DNA of 64,000 nt from Promethearchaeota archaeon (GTDB lineage Archaea; Asgardarchaeota; Lokiarchaeia; Sigyniarchaeales; SOKP01), in contig JAEOSU010000072.1 of the NCBI GenBank assembly GCA_016840165.1, forward strand, positions 96,001-160,000, given 5' to 3'. Shown piece after piece: positions 24,660-47,401 of this stretch; position 1 is the first letter of the stretch; each line of letters starts with the position of its first letter. The notes under the pieces were generated by a model. The model ran no database searches, had not been told where the DNA came from, and saw only the letters and a program-made list of their open reading frames with translations. The position numbers and the translations under genes are program-made.

Positions 24660-25994
24660 TTAGTAGTTAATTTTAGGAATAGTATCATCTCTTTCACTGC
24701 GAGAGGGTTTATATTTAAAGAATCTTCGTGATTCACTATCCTCTAAGACATAATTGCTTCCTCCGCCATGTACCATACAATAAGGATCCAGCAGACCAAT
24801 TTCATTCGCATATTGCCGAGTAAATCCTCGACCCCCCATAGTCCTGAAACAATGTATGGCACTTTCAAACCCTAATTCCGTTGTACTAATCTTTAGTCCC
24901 ATAGCATTAGCTGCCATCAGTTTTGAGCTTCCCAGTTCAGGATCTTCATCCAATTGTCTTGTGTAGTTAATTAACGCAGATATATGCAAATTTAATTCTC
25001 TTATTTTCCGAGATATTGGAAATCTGATAACTTGATATTGATGTAATCTTTTTTCAAATTGTCTTCGTTGCAAGGCATATGCATGAGAATAAAGTAGTTT
25101 TTTCATTGCATCACCTAATGCTTCAGCGCTAATTACCAATCTTTCTTCAGTTAATTGATGAAATGCGATATCTAAACCATGACCTTGCAGAAGGTTCTCT
25201 TTTGGGATTTCAACTCTGTCAAAGATAAGCCTACTTACAAATGCATCAGTCATACCATAAGTTCTTACACGCATACTACGAAAATCCTTTACTTGTTGAT
25301 TTTCAGTTTCAAAAATTATTGCACCTAATTGCCCATTGTCTAATCGGCCATATATTATGATATAATCAGCGATCATTCCATTAGTAATAAATAATTTCTT
25401 ACCTTTTGCAATGATTTTATCATCTTTTTCATATAATCTTAACTCCATTCTAAAGATATCTGATCCCGCATTGAATTCTGTCATTGCAGAAGCACCTACT
25501 TGACCATCTTTTGCGACGGGAATTAGGTAACGCTCTTTTTGCCATTCATTTGCCGCATAATTAACAGGATTGCAATATAAGGTACCACCCGCCAGTCTTC
25601 CCATTTCAATACTGTAATTTCCGGCGATATATCTCTCACTATATTCACTCCAGCGCCCTCCACATAATGCATAAGCTATTAATGCATTACGTGTAATTCT
25701 ACCTACTTCATAATCATCAGTATTTAGAACCGTTGAATAGTAGCCTCTTTTAGCTAATTTTTTCATGATCCCTATGACTATCTCTTTCTTCTTTTCTTGA
25801 GTAGGTTCTTCAACAAAATAGTTTAATTCTTCTAATTTTCTTAATTCGACATCAATTTCGTTTTCAATAAATTCGTATAATTCTGCTAAAAATTCCTTCT
25901 CATTTGATTTAAGAACGGGATTATTTAATAAATCTAATTCAGGGACATAGCGCTGGATTTTAATCTTTTCAAATTCGCTGATTCTTGTATCCAT
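24660..25994 (-). CDS. Acyl-CoA dehydrogenase
   Basis: AMTEFNAGSD, GKKLFITNG, YALQRRQF, MGGRGF; HGGG replaces YEG, so catalytic Glu is probably in LTEERL (LCAD/IVD-type position). Confidence 0.88.
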   Translation of the reverse strand: MDTRISEFEKIKIQRYVPELDLLNNPVLKSNEKEFLAELYEFIENEIDVELRKLEELNYFVEEPTQEKKKEIVIGIMKKLAKRGYYSTVLNTDDYEVGRITRNALIAYALCGGRWSEYSERYIAGNYSIEMGRLAGGTLYCNPVNYAANEWQKERYLIPVAKDGQVGASAMTEFNAGSDIFRMELRLYEKDDKIIAKGKKLFITNGMIADYIIIYGRLDNGQLGAIIFETENQQVKDFRSMRVRTYGMTDAFVSRLIFDRVEIPKENLLQGHGLDIAFHQLTEERLVISAEALGDAMKKLLYSHAYALQRRQFEKRLHQYQVIRFPISRKIRELNLHISALINYTRQLDEDPELGSSKLMAANAMGLKISTTELGFESAIHCFRTMGGRGFTRQYANEIGLLDPYCMVHGGGSNYVLEDSESRRFFKYKPSRSERDDTIPKINY

Positions 25995-26139
25995 TTTAAA
26001 TCAATAAATTAAAGTAGTATATCTTGAATATTATAACTCTAGTAATTTTAAAAGTTTAAAGGTAAAAAAACTTTATAACTAACAAATTTAATTGATTTTA
26101 AAAAAAATTTAAAAATTTAACAATAAGAGTTTGAAAAAA

Positions 26140-27561
26140 ATGATTAAATTTAGTGATAAGCAATTAAAGATACCAGAAATGAGTAAGCCAGTCTACTTAG
26201 CCACTGTTGGCATGTCAAAATTTGATCGTGCATTTCCAGAAACAAGAACTGAGGAGCTATGTATTCAAGCGTTAACAGCTGCAGCAGATTTTGTGAACAT
26301 GACTCCAGCTGAATTGAAAAGCTTTATTCATACTGCATATTATGGGCATTTTGCGGATCATTTTGGTGATCAATTACTCGGAGAAGCAGTAATACATGAT
26401 AGACTTGGATTGGATCCTTTAGGAACTATTGGTGTTAAAACAGGTGGTGCTACAGGTGGATCAACCATGTGGGAAGCAATTAAAGCAGTAGCTTCTGGGT
26501 ATAGTGACTGTGCTTTGGCTCTAGGCTGGGAACGTATGGATGAGGTTCCTACAGATGAGGGAAATCATCTAATTTCATGCGCTGCTGATAAAGATTGGGA
26601 AACTCCACTTGGTCACATTTATACAGGTTATTATGCAGTTATGGCTCAAAGGTATTGGCAGATATTTGGGAAAGCTGAAGATTCTTTTAGGAAAACTATG
26701 GCTGAAATTGCGGTTAAGAATCGAGGATATGCAAGAATGAATCCACACGCACACGGTCCTATGAAAATAACTGTGGAAGATGTTATTAACTCCCCCGTTG
26801 TAGCATATCCCCTCCGAGCCCTAGATTGTTGTTTAATGAGTGTCGGCTCTGCCTGTGGAATTGTATGTGATGAGAAAACGGCGTATGAAATAACCGATAA
26901 GCCTCTTCGGATTTGGATTGGTGCAGGAAGCCATACTTTAAGAGTTGCTGATCGACGTGATATGAAAATCCCACTTCTACCCAATGAAGAACCGGGTCAA
27001 TATGACGATCTAGGTAAAAAATTTCCAGGCGGAGATAGATATCCTGGATTTAGTAGCTTCTTAGCCGCTCGTATTGCTGCCTACTATGCTTATAATATGA
27101 CAGGGGTAGTGGATCCAAGCGAAGATTTAGATGTAGTTGAACTTCATGATGCATTTACAATAAGTGATATTCAATCATATGAAGATATTGGAATTAGACC
27201 ATATGGACAGGGTAGGGACTATATTGAATCTGGTGATGCCTATGTTATAAATCCAAAGACGAATAAACCTGGAAAATTACCAAGCAATCCATGTGGAGGG
27301 CTTATAGGCTGTATGCATGCTGTGGGTGCTACAGGACTAATGCAAATCGCAGAAATCGGTTATCACATTTGGAATCGATGGGATGAAATTCATGAGCCAG
27401 AAGAAAAATGGAAAGCTTTTGGTCGGGAAAAACCAAAAGATTGGACGAGTTTACAAGTAAAAGGAGCCAAACGTGGATTAGCTATTAGTCATGCGGGAGT
27501 AGGTTCGCATGTTACCTGTACCATTTTAATGGATCCTAATCATTTAATCAAGGAGGATTAA
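26140..27561 (+). CDS. Thiolase-fold (SCP-x type) protein lacking the nucleophilic Cys
   Basis: AVKNR, ELHDAF, NPCGGL, HAVGATG; KTGGATGGS at the usual NACASG site. Confidence 0.88.
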   Translation: MIKFSDKQLKIPEMSKPVYLATVGMSKFDRAFPETRTEELCIQALTAAADFVNMTPAELKSFIHTAYYGHFADHFGDQLLGEAVIHDRLGLDPLGTIGVKTGGATGGSTMWEAIKAVASGYSDCALALGWERMDEVPTDEGNHLISCAADKDWETPLGHIYTGYYAVMAQRYWQIFGKAEDSFRKTMAEIAVKNRGYARMNPHAHGPMKITVEDVINSPVVAYPLRALDCCLMSVGSACGIVCDEKTAYEITDKPLRIWIGAGSHTLRVADRRDMKIPLLPNEEPGQYDDLGKKFPGGDRYPGFSSFLAARIAAYYAYNMTGVVDPSEDLDVVELHDAFTISDIQSYEDIGIRPYGQGRDYIESGDAYVINPKTNKPGKLPSNPCGGLIGCMHAVGATGLMQIAEIGYHIWNRWDEIHEPEEKWKAFGREKPKDWTSLQVKGAKRGLAISHAGVGSHVTCTILMDPNHLIKED

Positions 27562-27566
27562 AAAAA

Positions 27567-28169
27567 ATGCCGAAAACAGAAGAGGAAAAGGGTTTTGTTG
27601 ATATAGTTAATGGAAGGTATAAACCGAGGGGAAAATTTCACATAATAGAGAAAAATCAACCCATAATTAACAAGGACACGGGAAAATTAGCAGGAGTAAC
27701 AAATCCAAGAGATATGACCTATATCCATTCTTACGGTGGTGAAGCTCCATTTTTCGAAGGAATAGGTAAAGGAAAACTTTTAGCAACCCGATGTGATAAT
27801 CCAAAATGTGATAGCAAGGGTTCGATTTTTGAGCCTTTCAGAATTTATTGTCCTGATTGTTTAAGAAAAGCCACTATAGTTGATATCACAGAAAAAGCAC
27901 GTAACACTGCGAAAATTCATTCCTTTATTATTACTCATCGTTCAGGAGCGTTTAATACTCTACCTAAACCTATAAAATTCATTAATGTTGAGTTTGATGA
28001 AGAAGTAGTCACTATTCTGATGAGCGTATTAGTCGTAGGAGAACCAGAGATTGGAAAGAGAGTAGTACCAATTTTTCGAACAAAAGACCCCACCTATACT
28101 ATTATGGACTTAATGTTTGTTCTTGAAGGTACTCCCGAATCAGAACTACCTGAAGGATTCACATTTTAA
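27567..28169 (+). CDS. DUF35 Zn-ribbon/OB-fold acyl-CoA-binding protein
   Basis: CDNPKC...YCPDC, IGKRVVPIF; 5 nt downstream of the thiolase-fold gene. Confidence 0.85.
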   Translation: MPKTEEEKGFVDIVNGRYKPRGKFHIIEKNQPIINKDTGKLAGVTNPRDMTYIHSYGGEAPFFEGIGKGKLLATRCDNPKCDSKGSIFEPFRIYCPDCLRKATIVDITEKARNTAKIHSFIITHRSGAFNTLPKPIKFINVEFDEEVVTILMSVLVVGEPEIGKRVVPIFRTKDPTYTIMDLMFVLEGTPESELPEGFTF

Positions 28170-28257
28170 ACTAAATAATCTTTTATATTTTTTTTATATA
28201 TATACCTAAGAGAAAAAAAGAGAAATAAAAAAATTTTGTAAAAAAGGAATTTGTTGC

Positions 28258-29157
28258 TTAAAGTTCTACATGCTCCTTTTTAAGATGGAAGATTTTTCTT
28301 GCTTCGTCGCCTTGAGCAATTTCCCTTCCTGCAACTTCCGCTACCTTTTTAGCCCATGCTACTTGTTCATAACTTCCTTTTGCTAATTCACCAGATATAA
28401 CACGGGTATTATCTTCTAAACCAACTCGAATATGCCCTCCTAATGCGGCAGCACATAAACCAGCTGAGAATTGTTGTTTGGAAACCCCACAAACGCTCCA
28501 TGTAGCATCTTCAGGTATAAGTTCTAATAATAAGGATAAATTCTTAGGTGAGAACGGAATACCTCCAAGAACACCCCATACAAACTGGAAGTGTAGTGGT
28601 TGAGCAAATGTGCTTTCATCCCGATTGAGGAAAAGCATATTATACAGCCCTCCTAAGTCATATATCTCCATTTCTGGTTTTGTTCTTGCTTTTTTCATTT
28701 CTTTAGCAAACTTCGAAATAGTTTTAAAAGTATTAGCAAAAATATTTCCCGCTCCCATTCCTACTTTTCCAGTTCTATAATCTCCTACAGCAAAATTCAT
28801 AGATGCTGTATTCAAGGAAGCTAATGGGGGTTTAAATGTTTGAACGGGCGCAATTCTTTGCTTATCTGTAGCCACTGAACTAATAGCGCTACTTAAATTA
28901 ATAATCACATCCGGAGCTTTTGATTTAATATTATCTAATACATCTTTAATAAGATCTAATTCATGAGTAGGATTCCCTTTTTCTGGATCTCTTGCATGAA
29001 TATGGACAATCGCAGCACCCGCATCGTAACATTTTTTAGCTTCATCTCCAAATTCTTCTGCTGTATAAGGAACGGAAGGATTATTGGCCTTTGTGGTAAT
29101 TGCACCAGCTAAAGCTGCTGAAATAACCAACTTATTTTCTGGATTTGATTCAGACAT
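28258..29157 (-). CDS. Beta-keto acid cleavage enzyme (DUF849/Kce family)
   Basis: NPSVPYT, AGAAIVHIHARD, KPEMEIYD, GGHIRVGLEDN. Confidence 0.92.
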   Translation of the reverse strand: MSESNPENKLVISAALAGAITTKANNPSVPYTAEEFGDEAKKCYDAGAAIVHIHARDPEKGNPTHELDLIKDVLDNIKSKAPDVIINLSSAISSVATDKQRIAPVQTFKPPLASLNTASMNFAVGDYRTGKVGMGAGNIFANTFKTISKFAKEMKKARTKPEMEIYDLGGLYNMLFLNRDESTFAQPLHFQFVWGVLGGIPFSPKNLSLLLELIPEDATWSVCGVSKQQFSAGLCAAALGGHIRVGLEDNTRVISGELAKGSYEQVAWAKKVAEVAGREIAQGDEARKIFHLKKEHVEL

Positions 29158-29368
29158 GTTTAATTTACACTTTTTAGTATTTAGATTGTTATTCATATAT
29201 GATTATATTAAATTAAAATTGATCATCTTTCTATTTAAATTTTAAAAATTGGGTCTTGTAGAACTTACTTTTTTATACAAACCAAATAAAAACTATTTAT
29301 AGATCAATTATTCAATATAATAATAATTTAAATGAATTTTTAAAAATTAAAAGACATGGAATTCAAAA

Positions 29369-30511: not shown

Positions 30512-30514
30512 AAG

Positions 30515-31687
30515 ATGCCGAAACATGATGTAGCAGTCGTAGGAATTGGTCAAACAAAATTTAGAAGTAAAAGACGCGATGTTAACATACCTGAAATGAT
30601 CTACGAAGCAGTTAAGATGGCTTTGGATGACGCACAAATGGAACCAAAGGATATAGATGCAATTTTAATTGGGAATATGGATCATTTTGAAGGAATAAAT
30701 TTCTCTGAGATGTGGTGTGGAATTGATGCAGCACCGGGATATTTAAAACCAGTATTAAAAATTGCGACGGGAGGAACTACAGGATCTTCCCTAGGTATTT
30801 GCGGGTATTATAATATTGCCTCTGGTATCTATAAAAATATTTTAGTTGTAGGATGGGAAAAATTAAACGAAGGAGGAGCTACTACGGGAATAATCACTGC
30901 ATTTGATGCTGTATGGGAGCGTCCTTCATTAGCAGGAGCTTTAGGACCATTAGCGTTAATGGCAAATATGTATGCGGCAAAGTATGGAATTACTTCAGAA
31001 CAAGCAGCAAAAGTGACCGTGAAAAATCGATCAAACGCCGCAAATAATCCTTTTGCACATTTACAAATGCCCGGTATTACCCTTGATTACGTAATGGGAT
31101 CTCAAATGATCTCTTATCCTCTAAGGTTGCACGATTGTTGTCCTCAAAGTGAAGGTGCATGTGCGGTAATTTATGCCAATGAAAAAGAGGCTAAAAAGAT
31201 AACGGATAATCCTGCATGGTTTAAAACAGTTTCAACAGCTCATTATTATACCTTTGGAACTGATGATCTAATGTATGATTTACCTACCGCAACTATTGCT
31301 TCAAAAAAGGCTTACAAGAAGGCAGGCATCAAGGACCCCATTAAGGATCTTGATGTAGCAGAAATTTATGAACCGACTTCATGGTCAGAACTGAGTTGGA
31401 CTGAAGCCTTAGGTTTTGCAGAAGCGGGTGGAGGAGGTAAATTGCTAGATGAGGGGATAACAGCAATGAGCGGTGAGCTACCAGTGAATCCTTCTGGTGG
31501 AGTATTAAGTACTAATCCAATAGGAGCAACTGCTTTAGTACGATTTGCTGAAGCAGCAATACAAGTTATGGGTAAAGGTGGTAAGCGTCAAGTACCAGAT
31601 GTAGAAACATCCCTAGGAATGGGCTTTGGTGGAAGTCTTTGGACGGAGCTTGCAATATTTGGAAAGGATCCTAATCCGGTGAGGTGA
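30515..31687 (+). CDS. Ltp3-like thiolase-fold protein (aldolase subunit)
   Basis: GQTKFRSKRRDV, DHFEG, ATGGTTGSS, GWEK, NPFAHLQ, CPQSEGACAV, AEIYEP, LSTNPIGA resemble Ltp3 as recalled. Confidence 0.82.
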   Translation: MPKHDVAVVGIGQTKFRSKRRDVNIPEMIYEAVKMALDDAQMEPKDIDAILIGNMDHFEGINFSEMWCGIDAAPGYLKPVLKIATGGTTGSSLGICGYYNIASGIYKNILVVGWEKLNEGGATTGIITAFDAVWERPSLAGALGPLALMANMYAAKYGITSEQAAKVTVKNRSNAANNPFAHLQMPGITLDYVMGSQMISYPLRLHDCCPQSEGACAVIYANEKEAKKITDNPAWFKTVSTAHYYTFGTDDLMYDLPTATIASKKAYKKAGIKDPIKDLDVAEIYEPTSWSELSWTEALGFAEAGGGGKLLDEGITAMSGELPVNPSGGVLSTNPIGATALVRFAEAAIQVMGKGGKRQVPDVETSLGMGFGGSLWTELAIFGKDPNPVR

Positions 31688-31692
31688 AAAAA

Positions 31693-32184
31693 ATGGGAAA
31701 AAAAGATAAAGAATTTTTGATTAAATGGAAAACAAACTTACCCTATAAATACTCTATGGGGGAGTTAGCGGTTAAATTTTTCGAGGAACTCAAAGAAAAC
31801 AAGAAAATTATGGGAAGTAAATGCCCCAAATGTGGTAGGGTGCATTTGCCTCCTCGAGCGGTATGTGCAGACTGTCTGGTCAAAATGACGCTCGATGATA
31901 TGGTTGAATTACCTCCAAGGGGCACTTTAGAGGGTTTTACAGTAGTAAATTATCCTTTTATTGATCCAAATACAGGAGGGATGCGCCCATTTCCCTATGG
32001 TTATGGTATATTTAAGTTAGACGGTGCAGATACATATATGATGCATTTCGTAGATGAAACTGATCATACTAAATTTAAAATTGGCCAACGAGTAGAAGCA
32101 GTTTTTAAAGAAGAGAGAGAAGGTAATTTAGGAGATATTCCCTATTTTAAAATTGTTCGAGAAGAAACGGAGGGAGAAAAATGA
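31693..32184 (+). CDS. DUF35 Zn-ribbon/OB-fold protein
   Basis: CPKCGRVHLPPRAVCADC, KLDGADT, GQRVEAVF. Confidence 0.9.
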   Translation: MGKKDKEFLIKWKTNLPYKYSMGELAVKFFEELKENKKIMGSKCPKCGRVHLPPRAVCADCLVKMTLDDMVELPPRGTLEGFTVVNYPFIDPNTGGMRPFPYGYGIFKLDGADTYMMHFVDETDHTKFKIGQRVEAVFKEEREGNLGDIPYFKIVREETEGEK

Positions 32185-32633
32185 GTGATGATATGGAGAA
32201 AAAAGTATTTAAAGGGAGGATTAAAGTCCCTTATAAACATACAGCAGGAGCCTATGTAGAGAAGTTTATAACGGATATTGGGAAAAGTAATAAAATTGTA
32301 GGCGATAAGTGTCCAAATTGTGGTTTAATCTATGTACCTCCTAAAATGATCTGCTTTAAATGCTTTGAAAAGATGGAGGAATGGGTTGAAGTAGGAAATA
32401 AAGGCACTGTTAAAGGATTCACGGTTATTACCCATTCTACCCCAGTTATGCCCTTAGAACCACCATTCGCCTATGCATTGATTACTCTTGACGGATCAAC
32501 CACAGATATAATTCATCTCATCAAAGAAACAGATCCGAAGAAACTTAAAGAGGGGATGAGAGTCGAGGCTGTATTCAAAGAAAAGCCTCGGAAAAGAATC
32601 ACAGATATCGAGTACTTTAAAATAATTGATTAG
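32181..32633 (+). CDS. DUF35 Zn-ribbon/OB-fold protein
   Basis: CPNCGLIYVPPKMICFKC, PFAYALITLDG, GMRVEAVF; ATGA overlap with previous gene. Confidence 0.9.
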   Translation: MSDDMEKKVFKGRIKVPYKHTAGAYVEKFITDIGKSNKIVGDKCPNCGLIYVPPKMICFKCFEKMEEWVEVGNKGTVKGFTVITHSTPVMPLEPPFAYALITLDGSTTDIIHLIKETDPKKLKEGMRVEAVFKEKPRKRITDIEYFKIID

Positions 32634-32787: not shown

Positions 32788-33612
32788 ATGAGCGATAATG
32801 TAGTTTTAATTGAGGAAAATGAAGATAATACCATCACTACCATCAAATTAAATCGCTTAGACAAAAAAAATGCGATAAATTACGACTTAATGGTTGGATT
32901 TCAAAAAGCCATTGATCAAGTGGAACGATCTAATGCGAGAGTTGTGATTATTACTGGTGGAGATGATCTATTCAGTTCGGGCATTGATTTAAATTTCTTA
33001 ACTGGACAAGAAAGAGATCCAGAAGGAGTAATTCCAGATTTACGAATTCCTCGCAATTTTCGATATTTTGCAAATACATGGATTCATCCTATTTTTACCA
33101 AAATTGAGAAAATGGAAAAGCCTGTAATCGCAAAAATCAATGGCTATTGTTTTGGGATGGCTTTTGAACTCGCGTTAGCATGTGACTTTCGATTTTGTAC
33201 TGAATCAGCTCAATTCCATATGTTAGAAAGCAAGATTGGTATGAATCCAGATGTGGGCGGTTCTATTCGCTTAACACGTATAGTAGGAATTCAAAATGCT
33301 AAAGATATCATTTTAACGGGACGAAGATTCGATGGAGATGAAGCTTATCGGCTGGGAGTGGTTAATCGTGTGGCAAAGACCCATGAGGAATTAGATTCAA
33401 TTATTAAAATGTACACGGATGAGCTAATGACGAGTGGTCCATTAGCCATAGGTCTTGCGAAAAAGTTAATAGATGACTGCTATGGAAAGGATACTGCCTT
33501 GGGATTAGAACTTGAAACCCTTGTTAGCTCTCAGCTACTTCAAACTAAAGACGCAGTTAATGCCGCTTTAGCGCGACTTACTAAAACAAAACCTAAATGG
33601 AAATGGAAATAA
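32788..33612 (+). CDS. Enoyl-CoA hydratase (crotonase) with both catalytic Glu
   Basis: FSSGIDL, KPVIAKINGYCFGMAFELALACDFR, MLESKIG. Confidence 0.9.
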   Translation: MSDNVVLIEENEDNTITTIKLNRLDKKNAINYDLMVGFQKAIDQVERSNARVVIITGGDDLFSSGIDLNFLTGQERDPEGVIPDLRIPRNFRYFANTWIHPIFTKIEKMEKPVIAKINGYCFGMAFELALACDFRFCTESAQFHMLESKIGMNPDVGGSIRLTRIVGIQNAKDIILTGRRFDGDEAYRLGVVNRVAKTHEELDSIIKMYTDELMTSGPLAIGLAKKLIDDCYGKDTALGLELETLVSSQLLQTKDAVNAALARLTKTKPKWKWK

Positions 33613-34920: not shown

Positions 34921-35331
34921 CTATAAAAATTCTGTATCAACATTTTGTAAACTATTCACAATCTCTTGGGCTGCTCGTGTTGCTCGCATCAATTTAGCCA
35001 TGTTTCCGACAAGTCTTAGCTTTCCAGACATAACACCTTGAATAGTGTCCAATTCTTTCTTAGCAATCTTAACCCAGTTTCCATAAGGACCCGAAAGTGT
35101 AAATTCTGCCTCCGGTTCCTCACCCTCTTCTAATAACTTAACTCCTGTGCACTCACCATGAAAAAGTCCGAGAAGAAAACGTACTTCATGATCTAAAGGA
35201 CCATCAGGCTCTATTACACAAATCATATCCCCTTCCCACCAAGAAGCAGACTCCTTATAAGCGGGATTGTCATTTATGGCTTGTCCAAAGGCATCTAACC
35301 ATTCTGTCGTTAAAATTTTCAATTTATTCAC
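34921..35331 (-). CDS. SCP2 sterol/lipid-binding domain protein
   Basis: EWLDAF, WEGD, LFHGEC, AEFTLSGPYGNW, GVMSGKLRLVGNMAKLMR. Confidence 0.85.
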   Translation of the reverse strand: MNKLKILTTEWLDAFGQAINDNPAYKESASWWEGDMICVIEPDGPLDHEVRFLLGLFHGECTGVKLLEEGEEPEAEFTLSGPYGNWVKIAKKELDTIQGVMSGKLRLVGNMAKLMRATRAAQEIVNSLQNVDTEFL

Positions 35332-38235: not shown

Positions 38236-39057
38236 CTAACGCCCAATAAAATGAGGCTCATGTTTTTCTTTAAGAGCATTCATCGATTCCATAAAATCCT
38301 TTGAACGGAATGTTTTTCGTAATCCCTTATTCTCCAAATCCAAGGTTTGTTCAAGAATGGGGATAAAATATGCATGCATTGTCTTTTTCATTAATTTTAT
38401 AGATAAACTTGGTCCATTTGGTGGGATGAGTTTTAATGCTTGTTCTCTTGCATAGGGTATCAATTGTTCCTTTGGTAAAACTTTATTTACTAATCCTAAT
38501 TCATATGCTTTTTGAGCAGAGATTTCCTCACCGAAGAAACAGATCTCTTTTGCTTTTTGAAAGCCGATCAGAAAAGGTAAGATAAAATTTGCTCCAAATT
38601 CTGGGATGATAGCTCTTTTTCCAAAATAGAAGCCTAGCCAAGCATCCTCGGCCATATAAATTAAATCAGCCCCGGATAAGGGCATAGTAATGGCTCCACC
38701 TATAGCTAATCCATTTATTGCGACAATTACAGGTTTATAGAACGTCCAAAGTCTCATACATAATTTCTTTTGGGCTATGTCCATTAGATCAATTTCTGCT
38801 CTTACTTCCTTATGAACTTTTTTAAAGAAATCAGGTTCGAAAAACCCACCAGATGAGAAAGCATTCCCCTCAGGATTTCCTGTAATGATTAAAACTCGTG
38901 CTTTTTCATCATTTTCCATATCATTTATAGCAGTAAACATTTCTAAAAAAGTAAGGTATGATACGGCATTTCTCCTTTCAGCTTTGTTTAGAGTAATAGT
39001 ACATATTCCATTATCTTCCTTATCATACAGAATATCTTCAAAATCTTCTATATTCAT
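38236..39057 (-). CDS. Enoyl-CoA hydratase/isomerase family protein (isomerase-type)
   Basis: AFSSGG, KPVIVAINGLAIG; lacks both canonical hydratase Glu, has IIPEFG. Confidence 0.87.
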   Translation of the reverse strand: MNIEDFEDILYDKEDNGICTITLNKAERRNAVSYLTFLEMFTAINDMENDEKARVLIITGNPEGNAFSSGGFFEPDFFKKVHKEVRAEIDLMDIAQKKLCMRLWTFYKPVIVAINGLAIGGAITMPLSGADLIYMAEDAWLGFYFGKRAIIPEFGANFILPFLIGFQKAKEICFFGEEISAQKAYELGLVNKVLPKEQLIPYAREQALKLIPPNGPSLSIKLMKKTMHAYFIPILEQTLDLENKGLRKTFRSKDFMESMNALKEKHEPHFIGR

Positions 39058-39142: not shown

Positions 39143-40840
39143 CTATTCTTCTCTTAAAGCTTTCTTTTGAACTTTTCCAACTAATGTAAGAGGTAACTCT
39201 TCACGGAATTCCCATATTTTAGGAACTTCATATTTAGATAATTTTTCTTCAGCAAATTCCTGGATTCTCTTTTTCACTTCATCAGATTCTGAAACTCCTT
39301 CCTTTAGTTGCACAACTGCTTTAACAATTTCAGCTCCAGGTCTATCAGGATTAGGTACTCCGATAATTGCTAAGAGTTCTATATCCGGATGCTTAGTCAG
39401 TTGTTCCTCCACATGAACGCTATAGACTTTAAAACCACTTACAATTAACATATCCTTAGTTCGATCTACAATTTTTAAATAACCTTCTTCATCGAATACG
39501 CCCACATCACCAGAGTGAAAATAGCCTTCACTATCAAACGCTGCTTTAGACTCTTCAGGTTTATTATGATACCCCTTTGTTACTTGTGGGCCTCGAATTA
39601 AGATTTCACCGGGTTCCCCAACTCCTAATTCTTTACCAGTATCAACATCAACAATTTTTATTTCTGTATCGCTCAATGGTAATCCAACAGACCCAATTTT
39701 TTTAGTTCCTTTAGCAGGGTTAGCAGTTGCTAAAGGAGATGATTCAGTCATACCATAGACCTCTACAAACTTGTTTTGTGCATGGAAAAATTTTTCAAAT
39801 TCTCTTATAGCCTCCTCCGGAAATGGAGCGGCTCCGCTGACATAGAGAGTAATCTTATCTAAAACATCTACTGGAATATCTTTAGCTTTTGGATTATTCA
39901 TTATCATTAGGAATAATGTTGGGACATTTCCAAAACTCGAAGGTCTCTTATCAATTAATTCCTTAATGATATGATCCGTATCCCTTGGATTAGCAATTAA
40001 GGTCTGTGTTCCTTTTATGAAGGGTAGAAAAAGTCCTATTAAATATCCTGCGATATGGAAGAAAGGAAATGCTGATATTAACACTTCTTTTCCATGTTCC
40101 CTTCCAAGCCACGCATCAAATTGTGTAAGATTGGCGACTAAGTTTGCGTGGGTAATAATAGTACCCTTTGGACGCCCAGTTGTTCCACCAGTATACTGAA
40201 TTAAAGCACGATCTTCATTATTATTGATACTCACCTTTTTTATATCAATTTCAGTTTTGAGTGCTTCTAAGAAAGGAACTACTGTTCTTCCAGGATATGG
40301 TTTCATTTTTCCTTTTGGAATCTTTCCAATTAATTTACCCATAAATACCTTAAAACCGCCAAATCCCATGAATTCAGATATATTAGTGGGGATGATCAAT
40401 TTAAGATCAGGCAATTTATCTAATAGAGGGGTAAGCCGCTTCTCATAAATTATGTCCATTGTTACTATGGCTTTAGCTTTAGAATCCTCTAACTGGTACT
40501 GAATTTCTGGAGCACTCATTAGGGGAGAGCAACCTGAAATGGCTGCTCCGGCCATATATGTTCCATAGACGGCAAATAAATATTGAGGAGTATTGGGGAG
40601 ACAAATTGAAACAATATCACCTTTTTCAATTCCATTTTTTTGTAGGAATGTTGCAAACCTTTGAGAATATTCTAATACCTCTCTATAGGTAATAGCAGCA
40701 TCCATGAAATATATCCCTATCTTATCAGGGAATTCTTTCATATTATTTATTAAAATTGTTCCAAGATCATCAGAAGTGTAATTAAGCGTAGGTTTTACGT
40801 TAGGATCATACGATTTTAACCATAAATTTTTATCTACCAT
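39143..40840 (-). CDS. Long-chain acyl-CoA synthetase
   Basis: YTGGTTGRPKG, YGMTE, HSGD, DRTKD, LVGKVQK. Confidence 0.92.
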   Translation of the reverse strand: MVDKNLWLKSYDPNVKPTLNYTSDDLGTILINNMKEFPDKIGIYFMDAAITYREVLEYSQRFATFLQKNGIEKGDIVSICLPNTPQYLFAVYGTYMAGAAISGCSPLMSAPEIQYQLEDSKAKAIVTMDIIYEKRLTPLLDKLPDLKLIIPTNISEFMGFGGFKVFMGKLIGKIPKGKMKPYPGRTVVPFLEALKTEIDIKKVSINNNEDRALIQYTGGTTGRPKGTIITHANLVANLTQFDAWLGREHGKEVLISAFPFFHIAGYLIGLFLPFIKGTQTLIANPRDTDHIIKELIDKRPSSFGNVPTLFLMIMNNPKAKDIPVDVLDKITLYVSGAAPFPEEAIREFEKFFHAQNKFVEVYGMTESSPLATANPAKGTKKIGSVGLPLSDTEIKIVDVDTGKELGVGEPGEILIRGPQVTKGYHNKPEESKAAFDSEGYFHSGDVGVFDEEGYLKIVDRTKDMLIVSGFKVYSVHVEEQLTKHPDIELLAIIGVPNPDRPGAEIVKAVVQLKEGVSESDEVKKRIQEFAEEKLSKYEVPKIWEFREELPLTLVGKVQKKALREE

Positions 40841-41113: not shown

Positions 41114-41485
41114 TTATTTAGATTTCAATGCCACAGTTATAGCTCTAGTTAATCTCACGACATCCATTACCTTTCCTCGCTCCACAGTAATTTGCTCTCG
41201 TGATATTGCGTGAGTAAAGTCACCTTTTCCATTACAAATTCTCACAATTGCCTCGGGATCACCTGTCATTACGATATCGGCATCTAGTTTTGTTCCATTT
41301 GATAATATCCCTTTTCGATCATTTATACTTAAATAAAATGGATCCTCATTACTTAGGTTAAATTGAAAGGACATTTTCCAATTAACATCCTTACCAGCTA
41401 CATTCGTGACAAATACGGCTTGTGCTTTCTCATTTTGATTAACTTTCGTGATAATATTCTCTAAATTCTCTTTGGCTGCACCCAT
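41114..41485 (-). CDS. SCP2 lipid-binding domain protein
   Basis: FQFNL...FYLSI...G...ADIVMTGD...FTHAI...ITV.G SCP2 pattern. Confidence 0.75.
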   Translation of the reverse strand: MGAAKENLENIITKVNQNEKAQAVFVTNVAGKDVNWKMSFQFNLSNEDPFYLSINDRKGILSNGTKLDADIVMTGDPEAIVRICNGKGDFTHAISREQITVERGKVMDVVRLTRAITVALKSK

Positions 41486-41488: not shown

Positions 41489-41983
41489 TTACTTCCCTCC
41501 CTCAAATTCAGGTTTTTTAATCCAATTTTCATATTCATCCTCAGGAACAAAAAAGAAATCCGTCATCTTACCTTCTCTTTCTTGTAAGAACACTGCTTTT
41601 ACTCGTCGTCCTTTTTTGACTTTGGATGGCACTAGATTATCTGAAAATATCCCTTGAAGGAATGAAGTTTCCGCACCATCAAGTTTAATAAAGCCTATTG
41701 CATAAGGAATTGCTTTAATAAAGGCAGAAGTAGTATACCATACTATTGTACTGACTTGTATCGTTCCAGTTTGCTTAAGTTCAATCCATTCTGCCGGAGA
41801 ATAACAATCAGAGCAATTAATACGAGGAGGCATCCAAGTCTTACCACATTTTGTACATTTCGTACCTAATAACTTTTTATTATTCATCACTTCTAAAAAA
41901 AATTTAGATTGACCCCCCATTGTATATTTGTAATTTATTTTTATTACATCTCTTATCTGATGTTCGTGAAATTCTTCATTCAT
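41489..41983 (-). CDS. DUF35 Zn-ribbon/OB-fold protein
   Basis: CTKCGKTWMPPRINCSDC, PYAIGFIKLDG, GRRVKAVF. Confidence 0.9.
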   Translation of the reverse strand: MNEEFHEHQIRDVIKINYKYTMGGQSKFFLEVMNNKKLLGTKCTKCGKTWMPPRINCSDCYSPAEWIELKQTGTIQVSTIVWYTTSAFIKAIPYAIGFIKLDGAETSFLQGIFSDNLVPSKVKKGRRVKAVFLQEREGKMTDFFFVPEDEYENWIKKPEFEGGK

Positions 41984-41985
41984 AA

Positions 41986-43239
41986 TTATAGCACTCCCTC
42001 CTCATTAGCCATTACAATAATAGCCGCATAAGCAGCTCCCGGACCGCCAATTGAATGGGAAATAGCTCGCCCTTTATTGATTGTCACTTGATGTTTTCCT
42101 GCCTCTCCTCGTAATTGGAGGGCAGCTTCACCAGTACTCATAATTCCTGTAGCACCCACAGCATGGCCACATCCAATTAAACCTCCCGATGGACAACAAG
42201 GTAATTCACCTTCAATCCAGGGTCCTTCTCCTGGTTTTTCAAATGAGTTTTCAATCCAAGGTCCTCCTTCTCCAAATGGTACAAAACCTAGCTCTTCATA
42301 CGAGATTACTTCTTGACCGCTGAAAGCATCATGTAGCTCGGCTAGATCTATTTGTTTTTTAATGTTATTATAGTCTAAGCCAGCCATTTTATATGCCACT
42401 TTTGCAGCATAAATATTAGAATATAAACGGCCCATGTCTTCTCTATTTCCTATGAAACAATCAGTATTAGCAGCTCCTACGCCAGTAATCCAAATTGGAT
42501 TTTCAACCCCTAATTCCTTTACCTTCTCTTTATTTGCTAAAATTAAGGCCGCAGATGCTTCTGAATACAAACAACAATCTAACATCTTGAAAGGGTAACA
42601 GATAATACGAGAATTCATAACATCTTCTACCGTTATCTTCATGGGAGATTGGGCTTTTGGATTAAGCATTGCATTTCCATGGTTTTTCACTCCTACGAAA
42701 GCCATCTGCTCTTCAGTAGGGTTTCCAAATTCTTCATAATGTGCGTTAACCATTGATACATACGAGGAGGCAGCCATCATTCCCATTGGATATTCATAAG
42801 TCATATCTGCAGAATAAGCAATGGCATTAAGCACTTCTGGGGTCGTTGTTCCTGTTTGTTCGTCATAACAATCATTACATTTTTCAAGTCCAATGCATAA
42901 ACATAAATCAGAAATTCCCGATGCCACCTCAGCATAAGCCATTCGGACAGTATAACCTCCAGTAGCTCCTCCTGTAGCCACTCTCGTTCCTGGTTTATTA
43001 TTCATTCCCAGATATGAATTGGTAAAAATATCTGGCATAAATTGACGCTCAAAAAGCTCATTATATATACCATACACCGTCGATTGAAGATCTTTATGAG
43101 TGATGTGGGCACCATTTTTATTTGCATCTTCTAAGGCTAATTTGGTCGCATCATAGGCAAGTTCAAAGTATGTTTTATCTAAATACCGTGCTCTAAAAGG
43201 TGTTATTCCAACACCAATTATCGCTACTTCTTTAGGCAT
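41986..43239 (-). CDS. Thiolase-fold (SCP-x type) protein lacking the nucleophilic Cys
   Basis: RVATGGATGG, VKNH, ELHDAF, PSGGLIGCGHAVGATG. Confidence 0.88.
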   Translation of the reverse strand: MPKEVAIIGVGITPFRARYLDKTYFELAYDATKLALEDANKNGAHITHKDLQSTVYGIYNELFERQFMPDIFTNSYLGMNNKPGTRVATGGATGGYTVRMAYAEVASGISDLCLCIGLEKCNDCYDEQTGTTTPEVLNAIAYSADMTYEYPMGMMAASSYVSMVNAHYEEFGNPTEEQMAFVGVKNHGNAMLNPKAQSPMKITVEDVMNSRIICYPFKMLDCCLYSEASAALILANKEKVKELGVENPIWITGVGAANTDCFIGNREDMGRLYSNIYAAKVAYKMAGLDYNNIKKQIDLAELHDAFSGQEVISYEELGFVPFGEGGPWIENSFEKPGEGPWIEGELPCCPSGGLIGCGHAVGATGIMSTGEAALQLRGEAGKHQVTINKGRAISHSIGGPGAAYAAIIVMANEEGVL

Positions 43240-43481: not shown

Positions 43482-45164
43482 ATGTCTTGGGAAGAATTTG
43501 AAACGGTTCCTCATACAGTAAATGGTGTAATAGAGAAATGGGCTAAAGAAAAGCCAGATAAAGTTGCATTCATTTTTTATGACACGGAAAAAGAGTATAC
43601 GTTCAAGGATTTTCGTGATGCCATAACTGTGATGGCATTTAAGCTTTATAATCTGGGATTTAGAAAAGGAGACATAATTGCGACTTCCTTACCTTTTCTC
43701 TATGAGCATATAATTTTAGGTTATGCTTGTGCAAAATTAGGTGTAATGTGGAATCCTATGGATTTACGCTTAAAACCTCCAGAAATTATGAGAAACCTGA
43801 GTTTATTAAAAGAAAAGTGTAAAATGTATTGTCATTTAGGCAAGACGTCTGCTGCAAACTTTGGAATGATTGGTGCGGCTGTCATGAAAAATAATCCTTG
43901 GTTACAATATGTGGTCCAATTTAGTAGCCCAGATGACAGATATAGAAAAGGAATTATCCCTGCATTTCAGTTAATGCAAGAAGCTCAAAAAGAATTTAAA
44001 GAAGCGCAGACAAAACCGGAATCTATGAAAGAATTTATTGCAGAATGTGAAAAAGTAGGGGAGGATGATCCTATATTAATCATATTTACCACTGGATCAA
44101 CAGGGTATCCAAAACCTGCTATGTTAACAAATAAAGGTATCACCTGTCAGAATATGTGCTTAGCAAAGGGACTTGAATCTGAAGAGGATGATTTCATGCT
44201 GGTTAATTTACCACCTTCTCACGTTGGAGGAACAACTGAACAGTTTATGACACCTATATTTAAAGGTGGAGGTGTGGTTGTGCTACACATTTTTGATCCT
44301 GCTAAAAGTCTTGATGCAATTCAAAAATATAAGATTACTGTAATGGGGCAAATTCCAGCATTATTCGTAATGGAGTGGAGACTCCCTAATTTTGATGAAT
44401 ATGATCTTAGTTCTTTAAAATATGCAATTGCAGCAGGTCAACCAGTCGACAAACCTTTCTTGGAACGATTAACAACTATGGCTCCAAATTTGTTTACCGG
44501 GCTGGGATTAACCGAAACTTCAGGTTTTTGTTCTTATACACCTACAGATCTCACTTTAGATGAATTTACGGGTACTTTAGGTTATGATTTTCCAATTTAT
44601 CCGATGTCAATTAGAAAACCCATGAAAGAAGATGGAAGTGCCGGAGATGAATTACCAAAAGGAGAGATTGGAGAAATATGCTATAAAGGACCTCAAACCT
44701 TTTTAGGATATTTTGGAAATCAAGAGGCAACACGCAACACTTTATCAACAGATGGATATTTATACACGGGGGATATGGGTTATATTGACGAAAAAGGGCT
44801 TCATCTTGAGGGACGAAGAAAATTTCTGATAAAGCCAAAAGGCTATCAAGTATTTCCGCCAGAAGTTGAGGCTTATATCGCAGAATTATCACAAGTAGAG
44901 TTCGTGGGAGTGATTGGCGCTAAACATGAGGTATTTACTGAAGGAATCGTTGCATATATTAAGTTAAAGGAAGGTGAGACACTTACAGAACAAGAAGTAT
45001 TGGAACATTGTAAAGGGATGGCAGCCTATAAAAGACCTTCCATGGTTGTATTTGTAGACGAGTTTCCACTTAATCGTGTGGCAAAAACAGATTATGTAGC
45101 TTTAAAATCCAGAGCTGATGACGATATTCAAGCTGCAAGAGCACAAGGTGGTTGGGATAGTTAA
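43482..45164 (+). CDS. Acyl-CoA synthetase (class I adenylate-forming enzyme)
   Basis: FTTGSTGYPK, LGLTET, YTGDMG, NRVAKTD. Confidence 0.9.
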   Translation: MSWEEFETVPHTVNGVIEKWAKEKPDKVAFIFYDTEKEYTFKDFRDAITVMAFKLYNLGFRKGDIIATSLPFLYEHIILGYACAKLGVMWNPMDLRLKPPEIMRNLSLLKEKCKMYCHLGKTSAANFGMIGAAVMKNNPWLQYVVQFSSPDDRYRKGIIPAFQLMQEAQKEFKEAQTKPESMKEFIAECEKVGEDDPILIIFTTGSTGYPKPAMLTNKGITCQNMCLAKGLESEEDDFMLVNLPPSHVGGTTEQFMTPIFKGGGVVVLHIFDPAKSLDAIQKYKITVMGQIPALFVMEWRLPNFDEYDLSSLKYAIAAGQPVDKPFLERLTTMAPNLFTGLGLTETSGFCSYTPTDLTLDEFTGTLGYDFPIYPMSIRKPMKEDGSAGDELPKGEIGEICYKGPQTFLGYFGNQEATRNTLSTDGYLYTGDMGYIDEKGLHLEGRRKFLIKPKGYQVFPPEVEAYIAELSQVEFVGVIGAKHEVFTEGIVAYIKLKEGETLTEQEVLEHCKGMAAYKRPSMVVFVDEFPLNRVAKTDYVALKSRADDDIQAARAQGGWDS

Positions 45165-45222
45165 AAATCTTTCATTTAACTAATTTTTATTTATTTTATA
45201 TTTTTTTAATAGATGTTTATCA

Positions 45223-45816
45223 TTACAGTATACATTTTTTCAAAAGTAGAATACTCTCTTCTCTCGCTTTTAATAATGTTCTCTCTGTTATACCTTTCAT
45301 CTCTTCTGAGGGTAAAATTTTTTCTTTCAATACTTTTTTATACCACAGATATTCATCCTTTCTGCTAATAAATGGATCTACTTCCCGAGTTTCTATGAAA
45401 TTTTCAATTAAAGTCTTTTTACCATTGTTATTTCCTTCTGTGAGATCAAATCTATATTGTTTATAGACTAAAAAGCAGTGATCCATAGGAATGTAAGGTA
45501 TATTATACTTTTCCTGTATTTTCTGAGCACCAGTCGTAATTTCCTCCGTAAATTTGTATACTCCCACATTTTTTTGGAGTGGAATACCAAGTTCTCTGGC
45601 AAGACCCGCTATAATAGCATGTTTGGTGGTACAAGTTCCTATATTTTCTTTAAACAAAATCAAATCATCTTCATAGGTCGAATTATAACCATATTCTATT
45701 TCATGAATATATTTACACGCTTCCTTAAATGATTTAATACCCAGTTCTAAAAACTTCTTTGATATTTCTCCTTGAGATTTAATTTCTGCGTCTGGAAGAT
45801 TCTCGTATGAGTCCAT
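45223..45816 (-). CDS. Hypothetical protein, transglutaminase-like Cys-His-Asp pattern
   Basis: GTCTTKH, DHCF, FDLT. Confidence 0.6.
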   Translation of the reverse strand: MDSYENLPDAEIKSQGEISKKFLELGIKSFKEACKYIHEIEYGYNSTYEDDLILFKENIGTCTTKHAIIAGLARELGIPLQKNVGVYKFTEEITTGAQKIQEKYNIPYIPMDHCFLVYKQYRFDLTEGNNNGKKTLIENFIETREVDPFISRKDEYLWYKKVLKEKILPSEEMKGITERTLLKAREESILLLKKCIL

Positions 45817-46046
45817 AATTTCAAGAAGTAACTCATATCTTTTATTTTAATTCTATATAGAATATAAAAAAATCTGTCAAATCGATTAATTCGAATTATT
45901 TCTATGGATTGAATATAATAAGCAACGATATTTTGTGATTATTCAAAATTCCTTCACTAAGATGTCACAAAATAATAGGATTCTATGGATAATTTTTTTA
46001 AGTGCAAAAGTCTAATCATAACCATACTTATTGAAGTGAATATAAA

Positions 46047-47069
46047 ATGATTAAAACACGATTAACAGAGGAGTTTGGATTAAAGTATCCAATTATTAGC
46101 GCTCCAATGGGCCCTTTTTATACTACTGAACTTACAATTGCAGTTTCCGAGGCTGGAGGCTTGGGTGTTGTGAGTCATGCTACTTTACGAGGAAAAAATT
46201 CCCTCCAAGACATGAAAGAACAATTATTTCATGTAATTGAACATACAGATAAACCTTTTGGGGTAAACGTAAGGACCGCTCGAATCCAGACGGATCATAA
46301 AATAATGCTAAGAAAAATTGCTCAATGGGCAAAGGAGAATCCTAAACTTCGTGAGCAGCTAGTTTATGTTCTTACCAGTGCTGGAGGCCCACGTGATGCA
46401 AGTAAAATATTAAAAGACAAAGCACCTCATATTCATCATTTCCATGTAGCTCCTGCATTGTGGTTAGTTGATAAGGTCGTTGCATCAGGTTGTGATGGAA
46501 TCGTTGCCACCGGCACAGAAGGTGGAGGTCATCAAAGTTACGAGGGAATTTCTACTTTAGTTTTGGTTCAACAAGTTGCTCAAAAGTATCCTGAGAAGCA
46601 ATTAATCGCATGTGGAGGGTTTGCAACTCCCCAAGGGATAGCTGCGGGATTAGCTATGGGAGCTGATGCCGTGGCTATGGGAACGCGTTTTATCGCATCG
46701 AATCAGAGCGAATTCCATCCAAACTATAAAGCTCTTATCCCCCCTGCTACAGCAAGAGATACTTTATTAACTACGGGTGGTTTTGGTCCAATACGATTAT
46801 TAAAAAACAAATACTGTATAGAGCATGGCAAAGTAATAAGTAAGAATGATAAAATCGCACAAGAATTAGCTTACAGCATGGATGAGTATTTAGAAGACCT
46901 CATGCATTATGAAATTGTTTATACTAAGGGAGATGTTGAGAACGGGGCAATTCCAGTGGGTCAAACTGTCGGTTTAATTGACTCAATGATGGATGTGGAT
47001 GAAATTTTGACGAGCTTCACTAAAGAAGCAGAAAAAATTCTTAAAAATTTATGTTCGAATGTAACGTAA
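46047..47069 (+). CDS. Nitronate monooxygenase / FabK-like FMN enoyl reductase
   Basis: PIISAPM, AVSEAGGLG, EGGGH, IACGG, AMGTRF, GQTVGLI. Confidence 0.88.
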   Translation: MIKTRLTEEFGLKYPIISAPMGPFYTTELTIAVSEAGGLGVVSHATLRGKNSLQDMKEQLFHVIEHTDKPFGVNVRTARIQTDHKIMLRKIAQWAKENPKLREQLVYVLTSAGGPRDASKILKDKAPHIHHFHVAPALWLVDKVVASGCDGIVATGTEGGGHQSYEGISTLVLVQQVAQKYPEKQLIACGGFATPQGIAAGLAMGADAVAMGTRFIASNQSEFHPNYKALIPPATARDTLLTTGGFGPIRLLKNKYCIEHGKVISKNDKIAQELAYSMDEYLEDLMHYEIVYTKGDVENGAIPVGQTVGLIDSMMDVDEILTSFTKEAEKILKNLCSNVT

Positions 47070-47140
47070 ATTTTATTCTTTCTTTTTAATTTATATAAAT
47101 CAGAATTATTGTTATTTTAGTGTATTTTTTGTGCGTAATT

Positions 47141-47401
47141 ATGAATAGCGCTTCGATAAACTTAGAACGTAAGATAAAGGAATTATCATTACTTCATTAT
47201 AAAGCTATAACTATTTTAGAAAGATGTCGGGGCTGCGGAACATGTGTGAGATTTTGTCCGTTAAATATCCGAAAGTTTAATGAAGTGGGTAAAGCGATTA
47301 CAATTAGCTCTGTTAGAGATTGTGGTGGATGCTCCGTTTGCTATCATAGGTGCCCAAATAAAGCAATTGAGTTAATTCAACTGCAAAAAACTAATAAATG
47401 A
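47141..47401 (+). CDS. 2x[4Fe-4S] ferredoxin
   Basis: CRGCGTCVRFCP and CGGCSVCYHRCP; start uncertain. Confidence 0.85.
   Translation: MNSASINLERKIKELSLLHYKAITILERCRGCGTCVRFCPLNIRKFNEVGKAITISSVRDCGGCSVCYHRCPNKAIELIQLQKTNK

Follow-up and report, generated by a model that had tools for sequence, protein, structure and literature searches.

A conserved acyl-CoA gene island of one Asgard family with cysteine-less thiolase-fold/DUF35 modules as candidate retro-aldol lyases

Analysis of a 64,000-nucleotide stretch of DNA from a Promethearchaeota archaeon (C54:96001-160000, C54 being contig JAEOSU010000072.1 of assembly GCA_016840165.1; genome of 3.6 Mb, 99.7% complete), hereafter the window, revealed an island of about 23 kb of fatty-acid-type genes at window positions 24660-47401. 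Three modules in this island pair thiolase-fold proteins that are devoid of the nucleophilic cysteine with DUF35 proteins: P1 with DUF35w, P2-P3 with DUF35a and DUF35b, and P4 with DUF35c and the lipid-carrier protein SCP2b. We read the island as an acyl-CoA processing locus with C-C cleavage enzymes other than thiolases, in which the Cys-less modules would act as retro-aldol lyases, and we give this sequence-based reading an even chance of being correct. Near-identical relatives carry the labels Promethearchaeota or Promethearchaeia, i.e. Asgard. A search of sequencing runs located the DNA in marine sediment, soil and marsh metagenomes, and listed no RNA runs for the island DNA.

The first module consists of P1 (476 aa; 26131..27561, plus strand) and its divergent partner DUF35w (200 aa; 27567..28169, plus strand). 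The second, also on the plus strand, comprises the Ltp4-like P2 (29369..30511), the Ltp3-like P3 (30515..31687), DUF35a (31684..32184) and DUF35b (32181..32633), the starts of the last two overlapping the ends of P3 and DUF35a, respectively, by 4 nt. The third lies on the minus strand and is formed by P4 (417 aa; 41986..43239), DUF35c (41489..41983; assigned by Pfam), which begins 2 nt after P4, and SCP2b, the third gene of the operon (41114..41485; Pfam SCP2, 25 bits). Within each thiolase/DUF35 module the genes are separated by 2-5 nt or overlap by 4 nt. Since four of the nine Thiolase_C_1 matches and four of the eight DUF35 matches of the entire genome fall inside 17 kb, this clustering is real and not due to chance. 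Pfam and NCBIfam analysis of the open reading frames (ORFs) of the window, Pfam covering window positions 19807-52142, recovered the full gene inventory of a preliminary description of this DNA: one acyl-CoA dehydrogenase (ACAD), two CoA ligases, two crotonases, four thiolase-fold proteins, four DUF35 proteins (the fourth by profile-profile comparison), two SCP2 proteins, a beta-keto acid cleavage enzyme (BKACE, DUF849), an iron-containing alcohol dehydrogenase (Fe-ADH), a CrtI-like enzyme with a reductase, an NMO enzyme and a ferredoxin.

P1 to P4 all match Thiolase_N and Thiolase_C_1 above the Pfam cut-off, which assigns them to the thiolase superfamily fold. For alignment we employed as reference thiolases the genome's own archaeal-type enzyme on contig C30 (ACASS, HDCF, GHP), 7YVY, 6ESQ, 7PXP_C and BbsB. 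The column that holds the nucleophilic Cys in these references holds Gly (or Thr, depending on the alignment) in P1, P3 and P4 and a gap in P2; P4 reads G-G-A-T where 7YVY, 6ESQ and 7PXP_C read A-C-A/S-S/G. The HDCF position reads HDAF in P1 and P4, FEAF in P2 and YEPT in P3, and the His of GHP is retained in P1 and P4, giving both the signature G / HDAF / C-x-H, and is replaced by Asn in P2 and P3. Since the true thiolases 7YVY and BbsB also carry HDAF, it is the missing nucleophile that is decisive. With Gly or a gap in its place, canonical thiolysis is, judged by these residues, impossible for all four proteins, which are not thiolases.

Cys-less relatives with an assigned chemistry include the steroid side-chain aldolases: TcLtp2 carries the catalytic motif YDHF and CtSal the motif YDCY, the Tyr acting as catalytic base in both, and CtSal has Gly at the nucleophile position and hence performs no thiolysis (PMC12329534). 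Tyr285-Glu-Pro-Thr of P3 aligns with these motifs at the catalytic-base position, where P1 and P4 have His and P2 has Phe. Tyr285-Glu-Pro and Asn334 of P3 do not vary across 119 homologs that reach down to 55% identity, whereas the corresponding P2 motif varies among 80 orthologs (YDAF, SENF, FEAF). This invariance of one motif and variability of the other suggest that catalysis is the task of P3, with P2 as a structural partner that is probably non-catalytic. All of 120 homologs compared with P1 share its Gly, HDAF and His; the Cys two residues ahead of this His is found in 105 of the 120 and is thus not essential. The aldolase-type cleavage that the preliminary description had proposed is therefore favoured by the lack of a nucleophilic Cys in P1-P4, the operonic DUF35 genes and the invariant Tyr of P3, and does not extend as readily to P1 and P4, which lack the Tyr.

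Family models point to the same kinship. The best NCBIfam model of P3 is NF006180 (375 bits, cut-off 514), while P2 scores 270 bits with this model and 192 bits with NF005924 (cut-off 419); we take these two to be the Ltp3/Ltp4 (Rv3523/Rv3522) models. P1 lies near NF004982 (676 bits, cut-off 695), and the best model of P4 is NF004720 (302 bits, cut-off 420). Among solved structures, the best match of P2 and P3 is 4YZO (E of 1e-45 to 1e-46), ST0096 of Sulfolobus tokodaii, which is itself Cys-less with Ser-Gly-Ser-Gly-Gly at the Cys site and is mentioned in the literature searched only as a structural neighbour of PhlC. P1-P4 score weaker against 6OK1 than against archaeal thiolases or 4YZO. A query of a protein atlas with P1 returned generic 'propanoyl-CoA C-acyltransferase / thiolase' clusters only, and the lineage of P4 is narrow, its next representative being 47% identical.

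A FastTree phylogeny was computed from P1-P4, the genome paralogs and 132 representatives; the characterised Ltp2, Sal, Ltp3 and Ltp4 sequences were left out. P1, P2, P3, P4 and a second genomic pair on contig C4 share one clade of 50 rows (SH-like support 83), 49 of them without Cys, and the 90 rows outside it comprise 68 Cys thiolases and 22 proteins that are also without Cys. P0388, our stand-in for the Ltp2/Sal type, falls inside the Cys-less clade; its PDB matches are 4U4E (248 bits), TcLtp2 6OK1 (193 bits) and 9MYR (161 bits; probably CtSal, from name and length), with Cys thiolases at about 130 bits. P0306 showed no resemblance to Ltp2. From the position of P0388, P1-P4 and the characterised type of aldolase appear to share one Cys-less lineage. 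Outside the clade falls a further Cys-less thiolase-like gene (IENGPASGG, HDAF, GHP) at C54:80044-82573, 14 kb upstream of the window, which scores 420.6 bits with NF004720 (cut-off 420), has a small DUF35 gene 0.9 kb downstream and adjoins a methylmalonyl-CoA mutase gene.

Among the DUF35 partners, DUF35a, DUF35b and DUF35c consist, by Pfam, of a zinc ribbon and an OB fold (zf-ChsH2 and OB_ChsH2_C for DUF35a and DUF35b). DUF35w falls under the Pfam cut-off (E 1e-3), and comparison with the DUF35 profile in hhalign gave 97% probability (E 1e-10), with a C4 zinc ribbon and an OB fold; its homologs are always located directly 3' of P1 homologs. A DUF35 gene thus adjoins every thiolase-fold module, as for Ltp2 and Sal. 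The predicted P1-DUF35w complex reached an ipSAE of 0.70, whereas none of three controls scored above 0.00. Among solved complexes, 58 of 80 attained this mark, as did 2 of 110 mismatched pairs; the model runs share at least 86% of their contacts, and the pLDDT of the partner is at least 85. Because thiolase-DUF35 complexes have already been solved, the model indicates likeness to these rather than proof of binding.

The genes surrounding the modules could provide the remaining steps of an acyl-CoA route. In the left part of the island, the divergent ACAD (444 aa; 24660..25994, minus strand; Pfam Acyl-CoA_dh_1/_M) is transcribed divergently from P1-DUF35w, and is followed by BKACE (28258..29196, minus strand) and, on the plus strand, by P2-P3-DUF35a-DUF35b-ECH1, the last being a crotonase (32788..33612; Pfam ECH_1). 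A minus-strand run carries P4-DUF35c-SCP2b and then the FadD-like long-chain acyl-CoA ligase Lig1 (39143..40840; PRK05605, 397 bits), the crotonase ECH2 (38236..39057; Pfam ECH_1), a CrtI/carotenoid-isomerase-family flavoenzyme of the amine-oxidase family (36591..38144; best matches TIGR02730, 148 bits, and PDB 4DGK), an FNR-like reductase (35400..36587; FAD_binding_6, NAD_binding_1 and 2Fe-2S by Pfam), the lipid-carrier domain protein SCP2a (34921..35331; Pfam SCP2, 35 bits) and the Fe-ADH (33669..34880; Pfam Fe-ADH and ADH_Fe_C). The right end is formed by the acyl-CoA ligase Lig2 (43482..45164, plus strand; Pfam, NCBIfam), a minus-strand gene for a 197-aa protein of no known family, without a Pfam match (45223..45816), and, on the plus strand, the NMO/FabK-like FMN oxidoreductase (46047..47069) and a 2x[4Fe-4S] ferredoxin (47120..47401; Pfam). 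As both catalytic Glu residues are present (motifs FELALACD and MLESKIG, read by eye), ECH1 is predicted to be hydratase-competent; in ECH2 the first catalytic Glu is missing on visual inspection (motif GGAITMPLSGAD), which would suit an isomerase. BKACE is full-length, with 297 bits over positions 1-274 of the PF05853 profile, and stays below the cut-off of all NCBIfam equivalogs.

In the route that we propose, a hydrophobic acid carried by SCP2 would be activated by the FadD-like ligases, dehydrogenated as its acyl-CoA by the ACAD and hydrated by the two-Glu crotonase ECH1, after which the 3-hydroxyacyl-CoA would undergo a retro-aldol split into acetyl- or propionyl-CoA and an aldehyde or ketone. 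The best candidate for this split is the P2/P3 heterodimer, which would be clamped by two DUF35 proteins, with P3 providing catalysis through Tyr285 as the base and P2 a structural role. The carbonyl product could then pass to Fe-ADH or to the nine AORs of the genome, followed by re-activation by a ligase. P1 and P4 would probably perform related enolate chemistry on other substrates, which is plausible because both keep the two His residues of the thiolase thioester oxyanion hole. Enzymes of the BKACE type convert a beta-keto acid and acetyl-CoA to an acyl-CoA and acetoacetate, and the island's member may act in this way on free beta-keto acids, with acetyl-CoA as co-substrate. Double bonds of the chain might be removed or shifted by the CrtI-like enzyme and its reductase, by ECH2, and by NMO with the ferredoxin. 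The island would in this way represent a variant of the ACAD-hydratase-aldolase scheme, an interpretation that is partly supported.

All 6 genus relatives and all 5 family relatives that were examined carry the locus at an equivalent chromosomal position, and since it is conserved across a whole Asgard family, it is no one-off aggregate. The genus relatives (70-92% identity) share the flanks, with genes for a G3P dehydrogenase and an RNase H-like protein at one end and for a GNAT acetyltransferase and a methylase at the other; in the window, this conserved downstream flank lies at 47430-49926 and encodes the GNAT protein and a 682-aa N6-adenine DNA methylase (N6_Mtase, Eco57I-type). Inside the genus the P1 module and the CrtI-like/FNR-like pair are each present in five of six relatives, and Fe-ADH with SCP2a, as well as Lig2, in two of six; across the 12 relatives examined, Fe-ADH at 60% identity or above occurs in three (2/6 in the genus, 1/6 in the family/order). 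The locus persists in three further genera of the family, where ACAD-P1-DUF35w is always kept and the thiolase pair is either orthologous or swapped for a pair of about 39% identity, and an order-level relative retains only P1 and DUF35w. In a phylum sample of 300 genomes, P1 orthologs are confined to two families, in one of which they occur in 33 of 68 genomes and in the other in 3 of 7; the other 226 genomes searched yielded none. The preliminary description had called for a test of synteny against a non-conserved aggregate, and conservation holds within this one family, with the core recurring in a Syntrophaceae contig; beyond the family the modules separate.

The P2-P3-DUF35-DUF35 cassette, composed of two adjacent Cys-less thiolase-fold paralogs plus two DUF35 genes, is intact in every long-enough locus among 80 related loci. 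The cassette is 73-75% identical in Jordarchaeia, where two BKACE genes and a CoA-transferase gene stand alongside (BKACE also adjoins it in locus L148), and 50-57% identical in Syntrophaceae/Syntrophales, Thermodesulfobacteriota, Poribacteria, Abyssobacteria and Acidobacteria. Most of these loci outside the family are without other island genes, with three exceptions. In an uncultured Syntrophaceae contig (L157:6283-20645; CAZGNL010000037.1), a run on one strand holds SDR, a small ORF, DUF35, Ltp4-like, Ltp3-like and DUF35 genes, and continues with ACAD, ligase, crotonase, a 606-aa ACAD, CrtI-like (36% identical) and FNR-like (40% identical) genes. Two acidobacterial loci, L151 and L152, present ligase, ACAD, SCP2, DUF35, Ltp4-like, Ltp3-like and DUF35. 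That these genes recur together independently is the strongest sign that the cassette works with ACAD, ligase, crotonase, SCP2 and the CrtI-like/reductase pair. The L157 run can be regarded as a bacterial counterpart of the island core and as a candidate for experiments in a cultivable lineage.

P1 and its partner also occur outside the family, being 75-79% and 62-65% identical, respectively, in metagenome-assembled genomes of bacterial phyla and Thermoplasmata/Thermoplasmatota (L057, L058, L059, L161, L162, L163), labelled Planctomycetes, Cytophagales, Krumholzibacteria, FCB group, Neomarinimicrobiota, Gammaproteobacteria and Thermoplasmata/Thermoplasmatota. Such conservation is unusually strong for a pair of no known function. 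Of seven contexts, three place an ACAD gene near the pair, in one case together with a CoA-transferase gene; a fourth has genes for B12-binding, crotonase and acyl-CoA synthetase proteins, and the other three show only unrelated genes. As for P4, its 47% relative P0242 on a JGI metagenome contig (L158:1129-9665) belongs to a row of UbiD, crotonase, thiolase-like and DUF35 genes. Upstream, at a distance of about 5 kb, is an AOR gene, and downstream a gene for a molybdenum hydroxylase; the locus looks like an anaerobic aromatic or alicyclic acid cluster.

Profile searches found no 3-hydroxyacyl-CoA dehydrogenase (3HCDH), no SDR and no Cys thiolase in the window, an absence that applies to the window only. 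The first and the last of these had been noted in the preliminary description, and both enzymes occur elsewhere in the genome: six 3HCDH genes and three classical thiolases with both catalytic Cys, one adjoining a 3HCDH gene, in addition to the archaeal-type Cys thiolase with DUF35 on C30. Since ordinary beta-oxidation genes exist elsewhere, the island is best viewed as a specialised addition. A 3HCDH gene 20 kb upstream on the same contig was considered as an extension of the island and rejected, as it sits among peptidase, presenilin and glycosyltransferase genes. Another archaeal-type Cys thiolase (VENYCASG, HDCF, GHP) follows a DUF35-containing ORF at C103:31000-32800, with a frameshift right after the nucleophile region, and is either a pseudogene or an assembly error. 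Altogether the genome holds seven thiolase-fold/DUF35 sets, five without Cys and two with Cys, one of these two being frameshifted. Among the Cys-less sets is a second cassette on the minus strand of C4 (28516-31912), composed of DUF35, Ltp4-like (384 aa), Ltp3-like (415 aa) and DUF35 genes (NF006180 349 bits, NF005924 186 bits), with unrelated neighbours (alpha-amylase, SepF, MtrH); unlike the island copy, it has matches of about 40% identity, probably orthologs, in other families of the order.

The substrate of the route is a separate question. The preliminary description had suggested sterol or hopanoid side chains or isoprenoids. ACAD, crotonases and ligases all belong to generic families and score below every equivalog cut-off, the best PDB matches of the ACAD being generic butyryl/isovaleryl-CoA dehydrogenase types. 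We also tried a steroid-specific reading and discarded it, since these enzymes match EchA19, CasG and the like far below cut-off and no better than generic families. The only hints come from the two SCP2 proteins and the CrtI-like enzyme, which would fit, weakly, a bulky and possibly isoprenoid chain.

A sterol, hopanoid or isoprenoid substrate is thus not supported. Several observations weigh against the retro-aldol reading of the island. In P1 and P4 the aldolase Tyr is missing and the two His residues of thiolases persist, so that the term 'aldolase' would apply to them by kinship only, and P3 itself lacks the second catalytic residue of Ltp2 (Tyr344) and Sal (Cys304); it has Pro at the Sal Cys304/His296 position, the exact column of Ltp2 Tyr344 being unmapped. 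The support of the Cys-less clade is moderate, in a tree from which the characterised aldolases are absent. The aldol-lyase role of Ltp3/Ltp4 is, in the account of Wilbrink 2012 cited in PMC6593523, an assignment from genetics only. The searches of the window detected neither an aldehyde dehydrogenase nor an AOR gene, and the window's lack of a 3HCDH and a Cys thiolase is no proof that the organism bypasses these steps, as its genome encodes both elsewhere. Furthermore, module content differs even inside the genus, and beyond the family the island breaks into separately travelling modules: P1 and its partner are often alone among housekeeping genes, and the P2-P3 cassette is also found alone, including the C4 copy. 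Because the modules stand alone elsewhere, their co-location in the island need not signify one pathway. We know of no P1-, P4- or Ltp3/Ltp4-type enzyme that has been assayed so far.

The likeliest of the alternatives is that the island is a collection point of independent modules of two to four genes, the CrtI-like/reductase block counting as one beside the three thiolase-fold/DUF35 modules, each with its own substrate, brought together by transfer and paralog turnover and forming no single pathway. Each module type is indeed seen alone elsewhere, and modules are gained, lost or swapped between close relatives. The occurrence of P1 orthologs in two of about 30 sampled families of the phylum, yet at 75-79% identity to bacterial copies, is consistent with transfer, and P3 shows 50-57% identity to copies in Syntrophaceae, Thermodesulfobacteriota and Acidobacteria. 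We nevertheless find this explanation doubtful, for the same locus holds ACAD, crotonase, ligase and Cys-less modules together in four genera, and a single bacterial strand-run, that of L157, joins the cassette to ACAD, ligase, crotonase and the CrtI-like/reductase pair.

It is also conceivable, if unlikely, that at least P1 and P4 are not aldolases and act instead as decarboxylases of malonyl-type CoA esters, as acyl-transfer enzymes of the PhlC kind, or as inert scaffolds. Their His-Asp-Ala-Phe at the place of the aldolase base leaves a His/His oxyanion hole and no base; the Cys-less relative TbSLP exhibits weak malonyl-CoA decarboxylase activity only (PMC12329534); and thiolases, HMG-CoA synthase complexes and the PhlABC acylase likewise have DUF35 partners. 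The 75-79% identity of P1 across domains, with about 100 invariant polar residues, speaks for a constrained catalyst rather than an inert scaffold, however, and relatives adjoin crotonases and an AOR gene, while both proteins group with Tyr-type members in the tree.

Finally, the thiolase/DUF35 pairs could be ketothiolase (KT)/DUF35 condensing units of an archaeal fatty-acid synthase, as a preprint reads many Asgard pairs (bioRxiv 2024.07.05.601840) and as the FabK-like NMO gene inside the island might suggest; we consider this very unlikely and set it aside on account of the missing nucleophilic Cys, which the acyl-enzyme step of a Claisen condensation requires, to which may be added that the window has no SDR ketoreductase and that the Pfam scan of its ORFs (19807-52142), with no targeted search made, contained no MaoC dehydratase or MDR/zinc-ADH enoyl-reductase.

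The findings have implications beyond this locus. According to the same preprint, an Asgard genome holds on average 3.8 KT/DUF35 pairs (bioRxiv 2024.07.05.601840), and such counts overstate condensing capacity, since only two of the seven sets in the genome studied here have the catalytic Cys, one of them frameshifted. If most Asgard KT/DUF35 pairs are not condensing enzymes, the genomic case for fatty-acid synthesis in this group is weakened. The lipid metabolism of Asgard archaea, which are closer to eukaryotes than any other known group, is relevant to the change of membranes at the origin of eukaryotes. Cys-less sets of the Ltp3/Ltp4-like, P1 and P4 types are common in anaerobic sediment microbes; were they retro-aldolases, they would constitute a widespread, oxygen-independent means of shortening chains beyond the reach of ordinary beta-oxidation, and would be useful as C-C bond biocatalysts. 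A bolder proposal, which we advance with considerable reserve, is that one Asgard family keeps a complete chain-shortening route without 3HCDH or thiolase, in which three Cys-less lyase types and BKACE act on branched or isoprenoid-derived acids, that the P1+DUF35 pair is a widespread and unrecognised C-C lyase, and that most Asgard 'ketothiolase/DUF35' pairs are not condensing enzymes. The literature searched holds no description of Cys-less thiolase/DUF35 sets in Asgard archaea, and the designation of the pathway as undescribed stands for that literature. New here are the Cys-less state of all three module types and their common clade, the cross-domain conservation of P1 and its partner, the conservation of the island at family level with turnover of its modules, and the Syntrophaceae counterpart of the core.

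One of the closest known systems is the Ltp3-Ltp4 pair with its tandem-DUF35 protein in actinobacterial sterol catabolism (Rv3523/Rv3522/Rv3521 type). Both have two adjacent, divergent Cys-less thiolase-fold genes, two DUF35 units, and crotonase and ligase genes nearby. In contrast to the actinobacterial system, the island proteins score under the family cut-offs (375 against 514 and 192 against 419 bits), each DUF35 unit is a gene of its own, and the cluster, which belongs to an anaerobic archaeon, is devoid of sterol-ring genes.

The steroid side-chain aldolases Ltp2-ChsH2 and Sal-Shy (6OK1; PMC12329534) share with the island the Gly in place of the nucleophilic Cys, the DUF35 partner and, in P3, the base Tyr; furthermore, Ltp2 and Sal act after an ACAD and a hydratase, as would the lyases of the island scheme. 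The island differs in that the second catalytic residue is lacking, the hydratase is a crotonase instead of a MaoC protein, and the DUF35 proteins are free-standing rather than fused to the hydratase. ST0096 (4YZO) is likewise a Cys-less thiolase-like protein, but it keeps the His of GHP, has HDMA and adds no mechanism. DUF35-clamped Cys thiolases have the same fold and clamp, P1 and P4 being about 35-40% alike to them, and possess the ACAS nucleophile and HDCF that P1-P4 do not. Lastly, while eukaryotic SCPx, a thiolase fused to SCP2, is a true Cys thiolase with HDCF and no DUF35, the P4-DUF35c-SCP2b operon similarly joins a fold of the SCP2-thiolase type to an SCP2 protein.

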